DNA from: Candidatus Tectimicrobiota bacterium
Lineage (GTDB): Bacteria > JACPUC01
Length of the DNA: 64,000 nucleotides
Direction of reading: 5' to 3'
Assembly (NCBI GenBank): GCA_016192455.1
Contig: JACPUC010000029.1
Coordinates: forward strand, 62,001 to 126,000
Each line of letters opens with the position of its first letter. The stretch's first letter is position 1. The notes beneath the pieces were generated by a model. The model saw only the letters and a program-made list of their open reading frames with translations, was not told the DNA's origin and made no database searches. Both the position numbers and the translations under genes were made by a program. Of this stretch, positions 25,682 through 64,000 are shown one piece after another.

Positions 25682-25808
25682 ATTCATCCCTTGGAGAGAA
25701 CCGCGGCGCGTGGGAGGTCGAAGTAGCGGAAAAGCGGCTGACACTGCAACAGAAGGAAACGGCTGCCGCTGGGTTCCGCTTCAGCGCCGGAAGATGGCGA
25801 GGGGGGGA

Positions 25809-26795
25809 GTGAAGGTGAGGAAGTTTGTTGTCTCTGTGCTCTTGGTAACGCCCATCACGTTCGTCCTGCTCGCCTCTTTCACCTCCTTGACAGCCTGCGC
25901 GCAACAGAAAGTGCCTCTCACCTACGGGTTTTCCAGTGATGTTGGGCGGCAGACGATCCACTATGCCTTGAGTAGGGGTTTGGTGCGTTCAGATGCCGTC
26001 GAGGTGAAACTTTTCCCGCAGTCGATTGACGCCTTGGTGGTGGCCCTGGGCACCAAGCGCTATGAGGTTTTGGAGACCTCGTCCTTCGGATTTTTGGCGG
26101 CTCGATCCCGGGGTGTGAACCTTGTTATTATCGGCAAGGGGTATCGGACGATAGACGGGCAGTATATCCTCGTCAGTAAGGACTCGCCCTTGCAGGGGCC
26201 GCAAGAACTGCGGGGGAAACGTGTCGCCATCACCGCGCTCGGTTCGACTTCCGTGGGGCTGCTCCGCCTGGTGTTGAAGCACAAGTATCAGTTGAATGTC
26301 GATAATGTCCGCTGGCAGGAAATCCCGATGTCGAACATCAGTACGGTGATAAACCGTGGTCAAGCCGAGGCCGGCTATACCTTCCAGACGGCGTCCTACC
26401 GAAGTTTGAAAACGGGCTTGTTTAAGGTCTTGATCAACGTTTCAAAAGAGTTTGAGGAGCTGTTCAAGATCGAATACATTCCATCGGTTTTTGTGACGTA
26501 CCGCGACGTCGTTGAAAAATCACCGGCTGCGATCCGCGAGTTTCAGCGCCTCCTCGCTGCCTCGATTGAGTATGGCCGCGCGCACGCGAACGAGGTCATC
26601 CCGCAGATCGTGAAAGAGCGCGGCTTGGACCCGGAGATGCTGCAGAAATGGATCGACTGGAATGTTGGTGGAGGGCGCTTGAGCGACGCGGATATCGCCG
26701 CGTACCAACGCCAGTGGAAGCTGGCGCAGGACTCCGGCATCCTCCCCGCCCAGGAAGTTACCGCTGACATGTTCTGGAAGGGATTCTGGGAGTAG
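25809..26795 (+). CDS. ABC substrate-binding protein, SsuA/NMT1-like
   Basis: Hydrophobic N-terminus; VSKDSPLQGPQELRGKRVAI motif; start uncertain (25794 or 25809). Confidence 0.8.
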   Translation: MKVRKFVVSVLLVTPITFVLLASFTSLTACAQQKVPLTYGFSSDVGRQTIHYALSRGLVRSDAVEVKLFPQSIDALVVALGTKRYEVLETSSFGFLAARSRGVNLVIIGKGYRTIDGQYILVSKDSPLQGPQELRGKRVAITALGSTSVGLLRLVLKHKYQLNVDNVRWQEIPMSNISTVINRGQAEAGYTFQTASYRSLKTGLFKVLINVSKEFEELFKIEYIPSVFVTYRDVVEKSPAAIREFQRLLAASIEYGRAHANEVIPQIVKERGLDPEMLQKWIDWNVGGGRLSDADIAAYQRQWKLAQDSGILPAQEVTADMFWKGFWE

Positions 26796-27927: not shown

Positions 27928-28839
27928 TCACGCGGTCGCCGACTCCACCGTGGGTATGGCGAAGGCAGTGCTTGCGAGTTCGGCGAGGGGGATGGGCCGG
28001 CGGCCTAAACTCGTGGAGAAGAGCTCCATCTCTCTGCTCAAACTGGCGAGGTCGAGCTTCGCGACCCATCTGTGAGCCAGGCGGTCGTAGCATTCCTCGG
28101 CGAGGTCGCGCTGCAGGTGCCATCCTTCCATGAGGTAGGCCACGCTGGCTGGCCTGTCTGTCCGCATGGCTTGCACGCAGGCCGTGTACCCATGGATGAG
28201 CCGTTGCACGACCTCGGGGTGATCCCTGATGAACCGCTCCGTTGTCACCAGCGCATGGCTTGCCCGGCCGAAGAATGCCTGACTCAAATCCGCGACGACT
28301 CGAAAGCCGGCGCGCAGCAGGGCGAAACATTCGGGCGGACTCGACACCAGGCCTCTACATTGCCCAGTCGTGAAGGAGGTAAGGCGTTCCTCCGGGGTAT
28401 AGGCGCGCTGGTGGGCGGGGAAGGCGACGTCCAGTCCCGGCCTCAGTCCGTGCTGGCGCAAGAGGAACGCCGCATGCCACTCCGGCATGGCGCCCCTGGC
28501 AGGCGTCATGAGCGCGGCGCCGCGCAAATCCTCGAGCCGCCCCACCTCTGCCGGCGCCACGATGAGATGGAGTGGATTTTCAACTACCTGCACGATGATC
28601 TTCAAGCCGCGTTCGCCAGCGAAGGCTTTCTCGAAGACCCCCTCGGTTGAACCTCCGAAGTCCGCCTCGCCCGAGAGGACTGCTTCCACATTCTGGATGT
28701 CCGCGCGCACCATGACCTCGGCTGCCACACCCTGGGCGGCGAAGAAGCCTTGTTCCACCGCCATCCAGAGGGGCGCGATGTTGAGAGAATGAGCCATCAG
28801 CGCCAGGCGCACGGAATGCGATTCTCCTGCGCGCGCCAC
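27928..28839 (-). CDS. SsuA/NMT1-like solute-binding protein, apparently without a signal peptide
   Basis: APLWMAVEQGFFAAQG, AVLSGEADF and LEDLRG motifs; GTG start 6 nt after AGGAGG. Confidence 0.75.
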   Translation of the reverse strand: MARAGESHSVRLALMAHSLNIAPLWMAVEQGFFAAQGVAAEVMVRADIQNVEAVLSGEADFGGSTEGVFEKAFAGERGLKIIVQVVENPLHLIVAPAEVGRLEDLRGAALMTPARGAMPEWHAAFLLRQHGLRPGLDVAFPAHQRAYTPEERLTSFTTGQCRGLVSSPPECFALLRAGFRVVADLSQAFFGRASHALVTTERFIRDHPEVVQRLIHGYTACVQAMRTDRPASVAYLMEGWHLQRDLAEECYDRLAHRWVAKLDLASLSREMELFSTSLGRRPIPLAELASTAFAIPTVESATA

Positions 28840-29362
28840 CTCGCACCTCCTGTGAAGCCGCATCTGATCGAAACCCGCACTGACGTCGGTTCGCAGCTCA
28901 ACAAGGGTGGCAGCCGGGGCTTCCAGCTCGCGCGGGGAGAGCCGCGCATGGCGTGACGCCGCCGCGAGCGCCTTCCCTCGGAAGACCCTCGGAGCATCTC
29001 CTCATGCAGCCGCGGAACCTCCCACGGTTCTTCACCCTTTCTACCGTGGCCTCCCCGTCGCTCACCCCTTCGCGCCACCCATTCGAGGCTGAATCAGCGC
29101 GGAGTCGGGAGATGCCTCGTGAGACCGGCGCACTCCGAGATGCAAGGCAAGCTCGGGCCGGAGGCGCGCCACTGTCGGGTCCAGCCCCTGGAGCCGCCTC
29201 CCGACAGCTCCCCTGGCAGGTAAACGAGAAGCCGCCGACACGTTGTCGGCGGCTTCTGGCAGCACAGTCACCCCATGCCCCCCGCGGGCTGACGGCAGGC
29301 TCTGCCGCGGTATGTGCGTCTGCGGCCAGGCGCCTTGCTTTGGGGGTCGGTAGTGTGGCTCC

Positions 29363-36055: not shown

Positions 36056-36288
36056 ACCTTTCGGGCGCGGACCATCGGCGCGCCGCCTTCTGCCCCACCG
36101 CGTGACGTGCTACACTTTTCATCATTGGAGCGTGCTTCCGGGCTACCCTGGGGGTTGGCGCGCGCGCCGCGAGGCGCACCGGCCTCGCGCCGCTCGCTCG
36201 CGCCCAGCCGGGAGAAGCGTTGGCGACCTTGCCGCTCCGGACCCGTAGCAGGGCAGCCGCCGCACGGGGTATGAGAAAGGATGCGCGC

Positions 36289-38127
36289 ATGCGACCGCGT
36301 CTCGCCAGTCCCGCCCGCTGGACCGACTTCTCTTACACCCAGGCGCGCATCGACCTGACCACGCAGGAGGTGCGGATCGAGGAAAAGCCCTGCGCCGACC
36401 TCGAAGACTTCCTGGGCGGCATCGGGCGCTCCCTGAAAATCCTCGGCGGCGTGCGGGTGCGTGATCCCTTCGATCCCGCCAGCCCGCTCATCATGAACCT
36501 CGGCGTCCTGACGGGAACGAACGCCATGACGGGGCTGCGCGTCTTCTTCAGCGCTTACAGCCCGTTGAAAGTCTCCAACCGGGGGCTGCCTGCCGTGACG
36601 TGGTCCACGGCGAGCGGCAAGTTCGGCGCCAAGCTGCACTGGCTCGGCCTCGATGAGGCGATCTTCGTCGGGCGGGCGGAGCGGCCGCTCACCCTGGTCT
36701 TCTCGGCGGCCCGCGACGGCGGCGTGACGGTGCGTTTCGAGGACGCCGCCGGCCTGCGCGGCATGACGACGCACGACAAGATCATGATGCTCTTGGACCG
36801 CTACCCGCGGGCGCACTTCGCGGCGCTCGGCCCCGCCGGGGAGAACTGGAGCGGCAGCCGCTTCGCCGCCATCGCCGTGAGCACCGAGAACCAGCTCCGC
36901 TCGCGCGATGACAAACCGCGCTTCGCCGGCCGGGGCGGCATGGGCAACCTCCTCGGCTCGAAGAACGTGCTGGCCATGGTCGCCGACGTTGAGGACCGAC
37001 AGGAGGGGCGTCCCAGCGCCAGGCTGGCGGCGATCAACAAGGAAATCGCGCGGGGCAACGGCTCGCGCAAGTATCGCGACGCGGACAAGGGCGGCGGCAT
37101 CGGCGGCACGATGACGAACTACGAGCCGCTCTTCGAGGTGGGGGCGCTGCCGGAGAACAACTTCTGGGCCAGCGGCACGGCGGCGCCGAAGGGTCTCTTC
37201 CGCGGCGTCATCGAGCAGCAGTTCGTGATCAAGGACGAGTCGTGCTACAAGTGCGGCATCCTCTGCCACAAGAATGTCTACGAGAAGGCGACGCCTGGGG
37301 AATCAAGCGGCCGCTTCCGCGCCAAGTTCGACTACGAGCCGCTCAACCTGTTGGCGACCAACCTCGGCATCCACGATGCCGAGTCAGCCTGCCGGCTCGT
37401 GGCCCGCTGCGACCTCCTGGGGTTCGATGCGATCAGCCTCGGCGTCACCCTCGGCTACGTCATGGAGTACAACCGCCGCCACCCCGAGGCGCCGATCGCC
37501 GGCGGCGTGGGCTTCGGCGATGCCGAGGGGGCGTTGAAGATCATCGAGAAGACCGCCCGCGGCGACATGCCGCAGATCGGCCAGGGGGTGAAACGCCTCT
37601 CCGAGGAGCTGGGCGAGACGGCCTATGCCATGCAGGTGAAAGGGCTGGAGCTGCCGGCCTACCTGCCGGAGACCAACCCGGGCTATCCCTTCGCCCTCTC
37701 CGGCGGCCACATGACCATGCGCACCTTCCTGCTGGCCGTCCTCGTCGGCGATTTCAGCATCGAGTACTGGCAGGAAGCCATCCTCGGCCCCGGCCTGCAG
37801 TACCTGCGCGATGACCTCGTCGGCCTGTGCAAGTTCTGCGGCTTGACGGACCCGCCGGTGGCCGAGGCGCTGACCGAGGTGACCGGCGTGCCGATCAGCG
37901 TCGAGGAGATGCGGGCCGCGGTCTACCGCACCTACCTGCGCGGCTTCGCCCTCGAGCGCCGCCAGGGCTACACCTGGGAGGAGTACACCATCCCGGCGCG
38001 CTCCTTCACGCCGAACGAGCACCTGAAGCTGCCCCACTTCGTCACGCCGGAGTTTCTCGAGGAGCTGAAGCGCCGCGTCATCGGCAAGCTGGATGCCTCG
38101 ATGGCGGAGCTGGGAATCAGCGCCTGA
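36289..38127 (+). CDS. aldehyde:ferredoxin oxidoreductase family (tungstopterin) enzyme
   Basis: FLGGIG, YSPL, GPAGEN, AGRGGMG..LGSKN, CYKCGILC, DYEP, CDLLGFDAIS and DLVGLCKF motifs. Confidence 0.92.
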   Translation: MRPRLASPARWTDFSYTQARIDLTTQEVRIEEKPCADLEDFLGGIGRSLKILGGVRVRDPFDPASPLIMNLGVLTGTNAMTGLRVFFSAYSPLKVSNRGLPAVTWSTASGKFGAKLHWLGLDEAIFVGRAERPLTLVFSAARDGGVTVRFEDAAGLRGMTTHDKIMMLLDRYPRAHFAALGPAGENWSGSRFAAIAVSTENQLRSRDDKPRFAGRGGMGNLLGSKNVLAMVADVEDRQEGRPSARLAAINKEIARGNGSRKYRDADKGGGIGGTMTNYEPLFEVGALPENNFWASGTAAPKGLFRGVIEQQFVIKDESCYKCGILCHKNVYEKATPGESSGRFRAKFDYEPLNLLATNLGIHDAESACRLVARCDLLGFDAISLGVTLGYVMEYNRRHPEAPIAGGVGFGDAEGALKIIEKTARGDMPQIGQGVKRLSEELGETAYAMQVKGLELPAYLPETNPGYPFALSGGHMTMRTFLLAVLVGDFSIEYWQEAILGPGLQYLRDDLVGLCKFCGLTDPPVAEALTEVTGVPISVEEMRAAVYRTYLRGFALERRQGYTWEEYTIPARSFTPNEHLKLPHFVTPEFLEELKRRVIGKLDASMAELGISA

Positions 38128-38349: not shown

Positions 38350-38676
38350 CTACCGCGCCCCGGCGCCCCGCATGATCGCCGACAAGGCGCCGATCACGAT
38401 GTCCTGGGCGCGGACCTCGTTGGCGTTGTCGCTCGGCTGGCTCTTCAGCCACCAGATGGCCTTCTGCAGGGCGACCCGGGCGCAAAGCTCGCTGCGACAC
38501 TCGATGAGCTGGCGCTCCACCTTCTCCATCATCGTGCCGTGCTTCTGGATGTACTGCACCGCCAGGTTCGCTTCCAGGTCGGGACCGCGCCCGCCTTGCG
38601 CCGCCGCCGGCGGGGCGCCGAGGGCGAGGGCAAGGAGGGCAAGCAACAGCGCCACCAGGGTCATGCGGGGCATCAT
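38350..38676 (-). CDS. secreted hypothetical protein
   Basis: Signal peptide MMPRMTLVALLLALLALALGAPPAAA; helical mature part with CRSELC. Confidence 0.7.
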   Translation of the reverse strand: MMPRMTLVALLLALLALALGAPPAAAQGGRGPDLEANLAVQYIQKHGTMMEKVERQLIECRSELCARVALQKAIWWLKSQPSDNANEVRAQDIVIGALSAIMRGAGAR

Positions 38677-38694: not shown

Positions 38695-39327
38695 TCAGCG
38701 CTTCAGGGCCGTGAAGGGATCGCCCATCGGCCGAGCGTCCACCTTGATGGTCGGCCCGTCGCCGAAACCGAGGAACTTCGACCATTCGACGTAGTGCTCC
38801 TCCAGCTCGATGCCGAGGGCGTCGGCCATGCGCGCCACGTAGTTGAACTGCGCGCACACCGCGGCGATCTCCAGCACCTGCAGGTCGCTGAAGCCGTTTT
38901 CGCGCAGGCTCTGCACGTCGGCCTCGGTCATCGACGAGGGAGAGAGGGTCATCTTCTCGACGTAGGCGATCATCGCCAGGTCGGCGGGGTCGGTGAGGAC
39001 GGACGAGGGGTCGGCGAGGAACTTCTTCACGACGTCGCCGTCCTTGCTCTCGAGGCTGCCACGGAGAAACTCCCCGTGCGTCGTCGTTCAGTAGCGGCAG
39101 TTGAGCAGCGCCGAGGTGTAGGACGAGATCATCTCCTCGCGGCGGCGTCCCAGCGAGGAGTTCCCGAAGGTGGTGGCGAAGACGAGGTTTGCCATGGCGT
39201 TGAACAGCGGCGGCTTCAGCGACATGCTGCGCATGATGCTTGGCACGTAGCCGCGCGCCGCCACGAACCTGTCGTACACCTCCTTCAGGTCCGGGGCCTG
39301 CTCAGGCGTCTGGGTCTTGATGTACAT
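38695..39327 (-). CDS. AhpD/carboxymuconolactone-decarboxylase-like peroxidase, probable selenoprotein (CxxU)
   Basis: ORFs 39088..39387 and 38695..39030 are in one frame, separated only by TGA at 39088-39090. Readthrough gives LNCRY-U-TTTHG, matching the CxxCxxxH AhpD motif. Confidence 0.85.
39060..39078 (-). promoter_or_regulatory. putative bacterial SECIS hairpin
   Basis: mRNA CACGGGGA-GUU-UCUCCGUG begins 9 nt after the UGA, with G in the apical loop. Confidence 0.6.
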
Positions 39328-39479
39328 GGGTGCTCCTCCTTCTCCGTGCGGAGGGTGAGCCGAGGGTGCTGCTCGGGAAAGGGACAACGAGCAAGACAGC
39401 GGCTGAAGGTCCTCAGTCTACCCCAGCAGTGGGGGAGCGGCAAGCGTGGCGGCCGGCGGGGGCGAAGCGCGGCGCTTGC

Positions 39480-47528: not shown

Positions 47529-48560
47529 CTACTTCTTGGTCACGCCGGCCCGCGCCTGGGCCTTGCGCAGCAGCGAAAGATCGACGTACCTGTTCACCTC
47601 GAACGACTCCTTGATGAACTGCATCTCCGCCAGCAGGTCGATGCTGCGCTGCAGCGCCGGCAGGTCCAGCTCGCCGTCGGGGGCGCGGTAGAAATCGAAC
47701 TGCGGCTTGAAGGCCCAGGCCTCCATGGCCTTGCGGGGCGCCTTCGTGTACCGCGCCGCCAGGTCGAGAGCCTTGTCGCGGTTGGCGGGGTCCCTGAACC
47801 AGCGCAGCCCGATGAGGTAATCCTCCAGGAAGTCGGTGAGCGCCTCGGGGCGTTCCTTGATGGTCTTGTCGAGCACGGTGGACATGAGGAATTCGGTCTG
47901 CCCGACGTAGTCCTTGCCGGTGAAGAGCTGGCGCAGCTTCCCCTTGCTGTCCTCGCGGAAGAAGAGCGAAATGGGGATGATGCCCGCGTCGATCTTCCCC
48001 TGCCGCAGCATCGGCCCCATGTTGGGGAAGGCCACCTCGACGATGTTCACGTCGCGTCCCGGCGCCAGGTTGTTCTTCTTCAACGCCACCTTCAGCATCA
48101 GGTCGATGCCGGCGCCCAAGACGTTGATGGCCACCGTCTTGCCTTTCAGGTCGCGCACCGTCTTGATGGGCGAGTCCTGCGGCACGTACCAGGTTTGCGA
48201 GGTATGTCCTTCCACGCCGTCCCGCGCCGTATCGGCAATGATCCTGATCGGCAGGCGCGCATTCAGGACCGTGTTGGCGAAGCTCGAAAAGGCCAGGTTG
48301 GCGACCTCGAGCTGTCCGGCCGCCATGGCGGCGATCTGCGGCGAGGTTCCCTGGAACTGCAGCGAGGTGACGGTGTACGAGGCGCCGTGGTGTTTCAACA
48401 CCCCCTTCAGCTCGTAGATCAACGGCGTCAACTGACCCACGGCGTTGATGTAGGCGACCCGCAGGTTCACCGGCTCCGCCGCCGCGGCCGGGGGCGCGGT
48501 CACGAGCAGCGCGACGCCCACGAGGAACCACGCTACGAAAGCAAACCGTATGGTGCGCAT
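47529..48560 (-). CDS. ABC substrate-binding protein, SsuA/NMT1-like
   Basis: Signal peptide; DSPIKTVRDLKGKTVAIN and LRQGKIDAG motifs. Confidence 0.88.
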   Translation of the reverse strand: MRTIRFAFVAWFLVGVALLVTAPPAAAAEPVNLRVAYINAVGQLTPLIYELKGVLKHHGASYTVTSLQFQGTSPQIAAMAAGQLEVANLAFSSFANTVLNARLPIRIIADTARDGVEGHTSQTWYVPQDSPIKTVRDLKGKTVAINVLGAGIDLMLKVALKKNNLAPGRDVNIVEVAFPNMGPMLRQGKIDAGIIPISLFFREDSKGKLRQLFTGKDYVGQTEFLMSTVLDKTIKERPEALTDFLEDYLIGLRWFRDPANRDKALDLAARYTKAPRKAMEAWAFKPQFDFYRAPDGELDLPALQRSIDLLAEMQFIKESFEVNRYVDLSLLRKAQARAGVTKK

Positions 48561-48670
48561 CCCTCCCCCTCCTCTTGCGGCACCCGTGCCGCCACGGCCG
48601 TAGGCCGGAACCCGAGCCGAGGTCTCCCCGCGCCGCGGCACCGTCGAAACGCCGCGCGCCTCCCGCCGGC

Positions 48671-52092: not shown

Positions 52093-53097
52093 CTAGCGGA
52101 TGTAGCGCATGTCGACCGCTACATCCATCGAGATCTTCTTCTTCACGAGCCCCTGCTCGAAGTAGAACTCCTGCGCCAGAACCAGCGACTCCTTGTCCAC
52201 CCGTCCGTCAGGCGCGAAGTAGGGCGGGATGGCCTTGGCGATGATCGGCGGCGGCACCTTCGTCCACTTCTGCAGCATGGGGTCGATCTCCGGCGAGGTC
52301 CAGCCGTGCTTCTGGAGGAAGTTGATGCCCTTCACGTAGGCGTCCACCCAGCGCTGCGCCGCGTCGTTGCGCTCCTTCATGAACTTGCCGGAGAACATGA
52401 TGACGGCGATCTGGAAGACGGGGCGGTCCAGCCAGTACTCGGCGGTGGCGAGGAGCACCGCATCGCCGTCGATGACCGAACGCGTGCCCCATGGCTCGAC
52501 AGTCGAGAGGACGTCGAGCGCCTTGTTCTTCAGGGCCTGGTACTGCTTCGGCGGCTCCAGGTAGCGCTGGGTGAGCTCGGTGAAGTTCAGTCCCGCCTTC
52601 TTGGCCATGCGGTAGAGGTTGTACTCGCTGGCCGAGCCTTTCGCGACTTGGCCGATGATCAATCCCTTGATGTCCGCGACGCTGCGCACTTTTCCCGAGT
52701 CGTAGAGGTCCTTGCGCACCACCAGGGGTAAAAAGGCGAACCCCTTCTTGGCCTGGCCCTTGTCGGCGACGATGCGGAAGTTCTGTCCCGAGGCGATGGC
52801 GTTGTACAGCCCGGCGCTTGGGGAGCCCGAGGCCACCTCCAACTCGCCGGTGGCGAGCGGCGCCATCTGCTTGCCGGCGTCGGCGAAGCGGCTGAGCTTC
52901 AGCGTCAGGTTCTGCTCGGCGAAGAAGCCCTTCTCCTGGGCGACGAACAAGGGCGCGAAAGAGAGTAACGGCATGTAGCCGGTATGCACCTCGTCGGCCG
53001 CCCCAGCGGGGATCGCGGCGAGAGGCGCGCCGCAGAGCGTCGCGGCGAGGAGCCCCACGAGCGCCAGCTTGGTCTTGTGATACAACGAAGTTCTCAT
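52093..53097 (-). CDS. ABC substrate-binding protein, SsuA/NMT1-like
   Basis: Signal peptide; APLFVAQEKGFF, LATGELEV and SVADIKG motifs. Confidence 0.88.
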   Translation of the reverse strand: MRTSLYHKTKLALVGLLAATLCGAPLAAIPAGAADEVHTGYMPLLSFAPLFVAQEKGFFAEQNLTLKLSRFADAGKQMAPLATGELEVASGSPSAGLYNAIASGQNFRIVADKGQAKKGFAFLPLVVRKDLYDSGKVRSVADIKGLIIGQVAKGSASEYNLYRMAKKAGLNFTELTQRYLEPPKQYQALKNKALDVLSTVEPWGTRSVIDGDAVLLATAEYWLDRPVFQIAVIMFSGKFMKERNDAAQRWVDAYVKGINFLQKHGWTSPEIDPMLQKWTKVPPPIIAKAIPPYFAPDGRVDKESLVLAQEFYFEQGLVKKKISMDVAVDMRYIR

Positions 53098-53400
53098 ACG
53101 GTATTCCCCCTTCAACACCCAGCAGGAAGGAGCCACCGCTGGCCCGGCGCATCTCCGCCCAAGGCGTTGACCTTCGATGCCGCGACGGCAGCGAGCCAAA
53201 GCCACCAGCCCCCCGCTTGGCCCTTGCGCAGGGAGCCAGCGGATATTCCCGATGGCTTCCCTGTGGCTGCCGCCGGGGTCCAACCGAGCCCTTGGCAAGG
53301 AGAGTTTATCTCTACCAGGGCATGCTACCCCTTGCCCTCTCAAGGTTCAACTCACCCGCGGCTCGCGCCGGACCAAGCCGAACGCTGCTCAGTAGCGTGC

Positions 53401-62759: not shown

Positions 62760-64000
62760 TCAGGCGTCCGCGGGGTGGATGGCGTGCGGCCCGCACACTT
62801 GCTCGCAGAGGCCGCAGCCGTTGCAGAAGGTCGGGTCGATGGAAAGGAGGTGATCGTCGCGCATGATGGCCAGGCAGCCGAGGGTGTCGAAGCACTCGCG
62901 GCACTTGCCGTTGCGCATGTAGGTGCAGAGCTGCGGGTCGATCTCGTAGGTGCTGAAGTTGACCTTGCCGCGTCCCCCCAGGGCGCGCTCGGCGAGGATC
63001 GAGCAGGCCCGCCGGGTGATGACCATGGAGACGCCCTCGGCCGCCAGGGCGCGTTCGAGGGCCTTGCGCGTCGCCTTCAGGTCGAAGGGATCGACGACCT
63101 CGATGGGCTCGATGCCGATGGCCGCCGCGATCTTCTCGATGCTCAGGATGCCGGTCGTGTCTCGCTTGGCGGTGAGGCCGAAGGCGCCCGGATGCGGCTG
63201 CTGCCCGGTGGCGCCGATGCACTGGTTGTCGTAGAGGACGACGGTGAAGGAGGAGCCGTTGTAGACGGCATTGATCAGCTCGGGCAGGGCGGCGTGGAAG
63301 AAGGTGCCGTCGCCCATCTGCACCACCTGCTTGTCGCCCAGCTTCACGCGGTACATGCCGTGCGCCAGGCCGGGGCCGGCGCCCATGCAGATGATCGTGT
63401 GCATGGCGTCCCAGGGCGGGTAGATGGCGCGCTCGTAGCAGCCGATGTCGCCGTGCGACACGAAGTCCTCCTTGCAGACCCGGCGCAGGGCGCGCGTCAA
63501 GGCGTACATCGTCCCCATCTCCGGGCAGCCGGGGCAGAGCGCCCCTTGGGGACGCTTGGTGATCTGCTCGGCAACGAACGTCATCGCCTGCCGGCTGCGC
63601 TCCGGGGCAAGGAGCGGCGCGAAGGTCCGGCCGGTGAGCTGGGCCAACGGCTCGGCGACGTGCTCGGCGCTCAGCTCGTCGGTGGCCGGCAGGTGGCCGG
63701 TCTTCTTGCCGAGGATGCGGGCGTGCCGGTCGAGGTCCGCCGACAGGTCGCGCACGAAGGTCTCGATCACCGGCTCGATCTCTTCCACCACCAGCACCGT
63801 TTCGAGGCTCTTCAGCATGGCCTCGACCTTGCCGCGCGGCAGGGGGTTGGCGGCGCAGAGCTTCAGGGTGGCGACCTCGTCCGCCACGCCGAGCTGGGCG
63901 ATGGCCTCGGCGGCCGCCTGGTAGGCCATGCCGGAGCCGATGATCCCCAGCCGCTCGTGTCAGTTGAGCTTCAGGCGGTGGTGCGGCATGGCGTCGATGG
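62760..64000 (-). CDS. iorA: indolepyruvate:ferredoxin oxidoreductase alpha subunit (5' end outside the window)
   Basis: VVEEIEP, CPGCP, GDIGCY, GDGTFFH (TPP-binding) and TGQQPHP motifs; C-terminal ferredoxin CNGCGLCEQVC. Confidence 0.9.

Follow-up and report, generated by a model that had tools for sequence, protein, structure and literature searches.

Introduction

AhpD-like selenoproteins, in which selenocysteine (Sec, U) stands at the second Cys position of the active-site motif to give CxxU, have been known since 2005. The available text of the Sargasso Sea study describes 27 such sequences and places them in COG2128 (PMC1088965), and that of the GOS survey gives 299 sequences of 'AhpD-like 1', there the fourth most numerous prokaryotic selenoprotein family (PMC2398784). 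AhpD-like selenoproteins are also included in the BSepDB database, according to the accessible portion of its description (PMC13326102), and a table in the accessible portion of a 2026 review has the entry 'AhpD-like protein, TIGR01926, CxxU' (PMC13188914). The remark in the initial annotation of the locus considered here, that selenoproteins of this type had already been described, agrees with the first, second and last of these sources. A related CMD-fold domain with a CxxU motif is found in NF041238 (AhpD_rel_CFYUT), the 'hypothetical protein 1' of the Sargasso Sea.

Here we describe a gene of this kind in a 64-kb stretch of DNA, the whole of which was analyzed and is called the window below. 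We conclude that it is most likely one intact gene whose in-frame UGA encodes selenocysteine at the active site. Since every defining feature of the AhpD-like selenoprotein family that could be tested was found, we assign the window gene to that family. It matches the same HMM family above the cut-off and has the same CxxU with U at the second Cys; as in the family described in the available parts of those sources, a candidate SECIS element with a G in a small apical loop lies directly downstream of the UGA and Cys homologues are widespread. Unlike the family at large, the clade of the window gene has a conserved extra C-terminal tail of ~30 aa (residues 180–210), and the gene comes from a high-GC genome, whereas the AhpD-like selenoproteins described in the accessible text of the surveys come from marine plankton. 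Membership in NF041238 was rejected, with a score of 73.2 bits against a cut-off of 175 and an alignment confined to profile positions 170–341 of 357 (the C-terminal half); the window motif is NCRYUT, versus CFYUT in NF041238. The window gene is an ordinary member of a known family and brings no new principle. Its distinguishing traits, the conserved C-terminal tail and an immediate clade in which the searches turned up no Cys form, are minor.

Results

A single 210-codon frame is interrupted by one in-frame TGA

The gene is on the minus strand, and its features are as follows.

38698..39327, minus strand: coding sequence of the AhpD-like protein (TIGR01926, CMD fold), 210 codons including the predicted Sec codon; from translation, Pfam CMD, TIGR01926, GC3 and dN/dS
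39088..39090, minus strand: in-frame UGA, codon 80, most likely read as selenocysteine (CxxU); from the TGA in a close relative (L001) and Cys in homologues
39060..39078, minus strand: putative bacterial SECIS hairpin; from fold energy, model criteria and synonymous resampling
38695..38697, minus strand: true terminator TGA; close relatives end at or near the same point
39335..39341, minus strand: Shine-Dalgarno-like AAGGAGG; read from the sequence, 7 nt before the ATG

One frame of 210 codons runs from 39327 to 38698, starting at an ATG (39327–39325) that follows AAGGAGG (39341–39335) with a 7-nt spacer, and the TGA at 39090–39088 (codon 80) is its sole interruption; the terminal stop at 38697–38695 is likewise TGA. 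The ORF list splits the gene into an N part (39088..39387) and a C part (38695..39030) that share this frame. Translation through codon 80 gave a product of 210 aa with the sequence ...SALLNC77-R-Y-U80-T-T-T-H84-GEFLRG... The initial annotation had described the split, the single interruption and the read-through product in the same terms and at the same positions, and we confirmed all three. In the frame of the gene, GC3 was 0.95 in the N half and 0.94 in the C half and GC2 was low; both halves flanking the TGA have a coding-type composition.

All TGAs of the window were scanned in six frames for coding-like flanks (GC3 >0.78 on both sides). At this threshold two passed, codon 80 and the terminator of the same gene, the latter with the next gene lying 18 nt further on in the same frame. 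When the threshold was relaxed six TGAs passed, and three of the four extras coincide with the ends of listed ORFs. The GC3-based scan at the strict threshold detected no second selenoprotein in the window beyond the AhpD-like gene. The stops of 25 family-supported ORFs of the window were TGA (12), TAA (7) and TAG (6). Since 12 of these 25 ORFs terminate with TGA, the codon is not reassigned in this organism.

The product has the AhpD-like fold and active-site relay

The protein matched Pfam CMD (PF02627) with 34.2 bits (cut-off 23) and TIGR01926, 'peroxidase-related enzyme', with 101 bits (curated cut-off 81.8), residues 11–174 covering profile positions 12–174 of 178. There were four NCBIfam matches in all, and no AhpD equivalog was among them; with no ahpC adjacent to the gene either, classification as a canonical AhpC-coupled AhpD was rejected. 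One relative, P0155, bears the JGI name YciW, which we take to be of the COG2128 type.

The solved structures closest by sequence, and by fold as well, were 6k40 (the AhpD-like alkyl hydroperoxide reductase of Deinococcus radiodurans, E 1.9e-20), followed by 3c1l, 2oyo, 2prr and 2pfx, all of them AhpD-like. In all five a Cys takes the place of the window's UGA and the chain ends near window residue 180, and the CxxCxxxH of 6k40 and 3c1l aligns with C77..U80...H84. An AlphaFold model, built with a 68-row alignment, was all-helical with a mean pLDDT of 93.9, and its best PDB matches were these same AhpD-like entries (6k40: TM 0.78/0.87, 31% identity). Lower-ranked matches of the model included the debrominase Bmp8 (6ohi, 6ohj; TM 0.72–0.73, 17–18% identity) and PA0269. 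To Mycobacterium tuberculosis AhpD (1lw1) there was distant fold similarity only (E 0.53).

The residues of a CMD/AhpD relay are present as E65, C77, Y79, U80 and H84, with the Glu-Cys-Tyr/His-Cys-His spacing of 12, 2, 1 and 4. The available part of a study of the relay names Glu36, Cys48, Tyr50, Cys51 and His55 in the proton relay of PA0269 and Glu118, Cys130, His132, Cys133 and His137 in that of M. tuberculosis AhpD (PMC3141380), so that the five-residue spacing of both is identical to that of Glu65, Cys77, Tyr79, Sec80 and His84. Across the 68-row alignment C77, H84 and R166 were invariant and E65, Y79 and C80 were at least 90% conserved; because its rows were picked by the analyst, mostly as single-domain CxxC forms, the alignment is informative for E65, Y79 and H84 only.

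The C-terminal tail (residues 180–210; 38698–38790, minus strand) has the pattern LGFxxGPT..V.....GDPF and is conserved among close relatives, L186, G187, G191, P192, G202 and D203 being invariant in eight of them. The tail lies outside the 178-position TIGR01926 profile and past the ends of the solved homologues, and the confidence of the model drops along it from 96 to 47.

Homologues most often have Cys at the position of the UGA

When 1.84 billion representatives were searched exhaustively with HMMER, 2720 matches were obtained at E ≤0.001, and the best 150 were aligned to the query, multi-domain proteins being aligned along a single path, which is a caveat for the counts that follow. Opposite codon 80, these best 150 of 2720 had Cys in 102 cases, another residue in 35 (Gly 16, Ser 5, Trp 4, Ala 4, Phe 3, Leu 2, Met 1) and a gap in 13; Cys was present at position 77 in 114 and His at position 84 in 135. 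Together with the Cys of 6k40, the 102 cases bear out the original assignment of the UGA to the second Cys of CxxCxxxH. The nearest full-length homologues, P0005, P0007, P0008 and P0013, are CxxC forms with 34–39% identity, and P0010 is a CxxS form. Three distant genomic loci (L002–L004) all carry TGC at the site. The initial annotation had counted homologues with a non-Cys residue at this site against its reading. On that point the nearest full-length homologues side with it, four of five having Cys, and the Ser of P0010 and the 35 other residues among the best 150 of 2720 do not. No uninterrupted homologue with >45% identity was found, either in the word-indexed searches, which cover 5.8 billion proteins, or among the 1.84 billion representatives searched with HMMER.

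The stop is conserved in relatives and both halves of the gene are constrained

A profile search of genome contigs with an 8-row alignment of close relatives yielded 4 confirmed loci from 49 candidate stretches, among which L001, on an 11-kb MAG contig, is the only close relative. It shares 66% identity with the window protein over residues 1–209, carries the TGA at the same codon and continues after it with ten identical residues, TTTHGEFLRG. In a codon alignment of the two genes dS was ~1.06 and dN/dS was 0.48 for codons 1–79 and 0.21 for codons 81–210, ratios which indicate that purifying selection acts on both halves of the gene. Because the TGA has been kept in L001 across this long divergence and both halves are under selection, we regard a sequencing error and a recent pseudogene as ruled out.

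Among proteins, the word-indexed search for shorter products gave 8 matches from 19 candidates. Three are 79-aa proteins ending in ...LLNCRY: P0003, which is the window's own, P0158 (75% identity) and P0159 (68%), the latter two known as proteins only, so that the identity of their stop codons is not visible. The remaining five are C-terminal pieces with 66–94% identity. P0159 with P0154, and P0158 with P0004, probably represent the halves of two more genes, the members of each pair having a shared source and longest contig (2195 and 1660, respectively). The occurrence of the same stop in independent relatives settles the check for sequencing error that had been proposed with the initial annotation: it is not an error. 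The expectation that automated annotation would break the gene into two fragments was also correct, for the public protein sets keep the halves separately as P0003 (79 aa) and P0160 (111 aa), the latter, from NCBI nr, being 100% identical to the C-terminal ORF of the window.

The word-indexed search for products of near-full length gave 1 match among 286 candidates, P0002 (141 aa, from a 1227-base contig). In this protein the first 12 residues of the family are joined directly to the post-Sec TTTHGEFLRG, an exact in-frame loss of residues 13–80 that includes Cys77 and Sec80. The deletion in P0002 is either natural or an artefact of assembly.

A SECIS-like hairpin lies immediately downstream of the UGA

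A hairpin, CACGGGGA-GUU-UCUCCGUG, is present at 39078–39060, beginning 9 nt past the UGA. Its arms (39078–39071 and 39067–39060) form 8 pairs, one of them G-U, around the loop GUU (39070–39068), and it encodes H84-G-E-F-L-R89 and the first base of G90. [quoted passage not shown] The hairpin agrees with 4 of 4 criteria of the model as given there (3-nt loop GUU, 8-bp stem, 17-nt spacing, −10.1 kcal/mol), and the stem-loop that the initial annotation had noticed 9 nt 3' of the UGA is thereby confirmed and fits a published model. The L001 copy had an energy of −11.0 kcal/mol, its synonymous GGG to GGA change turning the G-U pair into A-U.

For the 19-nt core the energy of −10.1 kcal/mol corresponded to a z of −4.15, with 1 of 200 shuffles equally good. 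The 45-nt and 66-nt contexts of the window were no better than their shuffles (z −0.58 and −0.71), and the fold energy of the wider region, not being significant in the window, was discarded as evidence for a SECIS; the 45-mer of L001 had a z of −2.41. Next, the codons of the stem were considered. The stem requires TTT, CGT and GGR, which make up 11% of Phe, 6.4% of Arg and 31% of Gly codons, respectively, in 16 window genes, and L001 retains TTT, CTC and CGT. When HGEFLRG was re-encoded with the codon usage of the window, the full hairpin arose in 24 of 20000 draws, and in 53 of 20000 the MFE was ≤ −10.1 kcal/mol; on synonymous resampling of the 45-mer, the observed energy was matched in 18.7% of draws. 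The codon choice in the stem points to selection on the RNA.

As a control for false positives, the same model was applied to all 1562 UGA trinucleotides of the window. A simple hairpin passing the model was found at 207 of them, and at 43 a hairpin in a permitted place had 8 or more contiguous pairs and reached −10.1 kcal/mol or better; the SECIS model is permissive in this GC-rich window. Part of the conservation of the hairpin is owed to the protein, because it sits in the codons of an invariant peptide. Compensatory covariation was not found in the two DNA sequences compared, which differ in the stem by a single one-sided change (G-U to A-U). A search of 38950–39200 against Rfam at permissive thresholds returned no family and three chance-level matches (E 2.3–6.1). 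By itself the hairpin is modest evidence for Sec; taken together with its position, rare codons and conservation, it is good supporting evidence.

Genomic context

The neighbors of the gene are a 108-aa ORF without a family, an aldehyde:ferredoxin oxidoreductase gene and proA; no ahpC or peroxiredoxin gene adjoins it. The nearest of these and a second gene with an in-frame TGA, at the end of the window, are listed here.

38350..38676, minus strand: 108-aa ORF in the same frame, 18 nt 3' of the terminal TGA; from the ORF list, GC3 0.88
62760..64000, minus strand: IorA-like (indolepyruvate:ferredoxin oxidoreductase alpha-like) gene with an in-frame TGA at 63962–63960

The 108-aa ORF is probably co-transcribed with the selenoprotein gene. 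Its product has a hydrophobic N-terminus resembling a signal peptide and two Cys (CxxxxC); it matched no Pfam family and had no Atlas match at 0.9 or above. In L001 a different ORF lies downstream and the window arrangement with the 108-aa ORF is absent. Since the ORFs flanking L001 (449–1033 and 1731–2729) differ from those of the window, the selenoprotein gene is not in a conserved operon, and synteny was rejected as functional evidence, the neighbors in L001 being unlike those in the window.

Genes for the Sec machinery were sought in the window. ARAGORN and Rfam at the gathering threshold gave only tRNA-Leu and no tRNA-Sec in the 64 kb, and no selA, selB or selD was found by NCBIfam among 89 scanned ORFs, chosen by the analyst from the 109 of at least 180 aa. 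Nor was there a peroxiredoxin match among the same 89 of 109, and no tRNA was found in the 11 kb of L001.

The window also holds benzoyl-CoA reductase/dehydratase-like, 4-hydroxybenzoyl-CoA reductase-like and CO-dehydrogenase-like molybdoenzymes, the aldehyde:ferredoxin oxidoreductase (36220–38127), a corrinoid protein, a PaaK-like ligase and five SsuA-family substrate-binding paralogues (25710–26795, 27928–28863, 47529–48641, 52093–53343 and a TIGR01728-like match near 26 kb). Genes such as these point to a high-GC organism, anaerobic or facultative, that metabolizes aromatic compounds.

In the IorA-like gene the TIGR03336 match extends across the TGA, rising from 311.9 to 328 bits, and 12 codons upstream of the TGA fall within the window. 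A Sec reading of this TGA was rejected, as 34 aligned homologues show Gly or variable residues, not Cys, at the position, and the sole hairpin departs from the SECIS model on two counts: neither of the first two loop nucleotides is a G, and the UGA is 15 nt away. The TGA probably reflects a nonsense lesion or a miscalled base (TGA vs GGA), or else the gene is genuinely split.

Discussion

That the locus is a single functional gene for a 210-aa AhpD-like thiol/selenol oxidoreductase with Sec at position 80 is, in our judgment, very probable. An explanation that dispenses with Sec altogether is that a Cys codon (TGC/TGT) has turned into TGA, in a dead gene or through a misread or misassembled sequence. 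TGA is one base away from TGC, and the window does hold another in-frame TGA, that of the IorA-like gene (63962–63960), which looks like just such a lesion or error. However, TGA stands at the same codon in L001 at 66% identity and a dS of about 1, two further relatives (P0158 and P0159) stop at the same residue, dN/dS is below 1 in both halves with GC3 of 0.94–0.95, and the hairpin with its rare codons is conserved in L001, all of which makes a dead or misread gene extremely unlikely. The stop could also be a real one if the locus encoded a 79-aa N-terminal peptide and a separate C-terminal protein started at GTG 39030, and these are exactly the two products that gene callers yield (P0003 and P0160). 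Yet no start codon lies between the TGA and GTG 39030, and residues 81–90 (TTTHGEFLRG, with the catalytic His) are nevertheless identical in L001 and P0002; a split would, in the structural model, part Cys77 from His84 within one helix, and the frame continues from one half into the other with a coding composition all along it. We consider a genuinely split gene exceedingly improbable.

Two further explanations accept the full-length product and differ from ours in what stands at position 80 or in what the enzyme does. The UGA might be read through without selenium, for instance by a near-cognate tRNA or by Cys-tRNA; alternatively, the organism might have no Sec pathway and make a low-yield Cys or Trp form. 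Sec machinery was not found in the 64-kb window, and the presence of Trp in 4 and Cys in 102 of the best 150 of 2720 homologues implies that non-Sec products could be functional. But among the true stops of the window TGA is the most frequent (12 of 25), a conserved, rare-codon hairpin that fits the SECIS model and sits in the right place has no role in selenium-free read-through, and the family is a documented selenoprotein family; read-through of this sort is very unlikely. The chemistry leaves somewhat more room. A selenoprotein whose CxxU carries out another thiol/selenol-dependent reduction, as in the AhpD-fold debrominase Bmp8, would be compatible with the presence of Bmp8 (6ohi, 6ohj) among the structural matches at TM 0.72–0.73, with the lack of an adjoining ahpC or peroxiredoxin gene and with the naming of TIGR01926 members merely as 'peroxidase-related'. 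Against this, the nearest solved relatives carry annotations as alkyl hydroperoxide reductase or as proteins of antioxidant defence, the AhpD proton relay is complete and identity to Bmp8 is only 17–18%, and we hold a non-peroxidase to be rather unlikely.

Returning to the preferred reading, an AhpD-like oxidoreductase with Sec80, a working scheme can be outlined. Bacteria insert Sec by means of SelB, which, together with GTP and Sec-tRNA(Sec), binds a hairpin when the ribosome arrives at the UGA and brings in Sec. Here the UGA would be decoded when SelB and Sec-tRNA(Sec), belonging to a Sec machinery that the organism is predicted to possess, bind the hairpin 9 nt downstream, which lies inside the coding sequence of the active-site helix (H84–R89). 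In the folded protein, Cys77 and Sec80 are expected to form a CxxU redox pair at the start of this helix, and Glu65, Tyr79 and His84 would complete an AhpD-type proton relay and shuttle protons. The second Cys is, we presume, the attacking residue in M. tuberculosis AhpD. By analogy with the AhpD paradigm, the selenolate of Sec80 may attack the predicted substrate, a peroxide, or else an oxidized cysteine (sulfenic acid or disulfide) of a partner protein; the adduct would then be resolved by Cys77 as a selenenylsulfide, and a cellular reductant would recycle the enzyme.

A more specific proposal, possible but somewhat doubtful in our view, is that the clade of the window gene forms an always-Sec subfamily of TIGR01926 with a tail of ~30 residues and a minimal SECIS (8 bp, GUU) in the codons of HGEFLRG, and that it could act on a non-peroxide substrate, like Bmp8. 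If this were true, one short stretch would be under two constraints at once, from the catalytic helix and from the recoding signal, and this could tie the lineage to Sec for good.

The main value of the finding is for annotation. Because the public sets store the gene as unrelated fragments of 79 and 111 aa, the selenoproteome and the antioxidant repertoire are undercounted. On our reading, the gene implies that a high-GC, anaerobe-like bacterium uses the Sec pathway. The sole pointer to taxonomy, too slight to carry a conclusion, is that the best named homologue of the IorA-like protein at the window end (53% identity) is labelled Candidatus Methylomirabilia; a Methylomirabilota MAG with 63 predicted selenoprotein genes is mentioned in the accessible portion of the 2026 review (PMC13188914).
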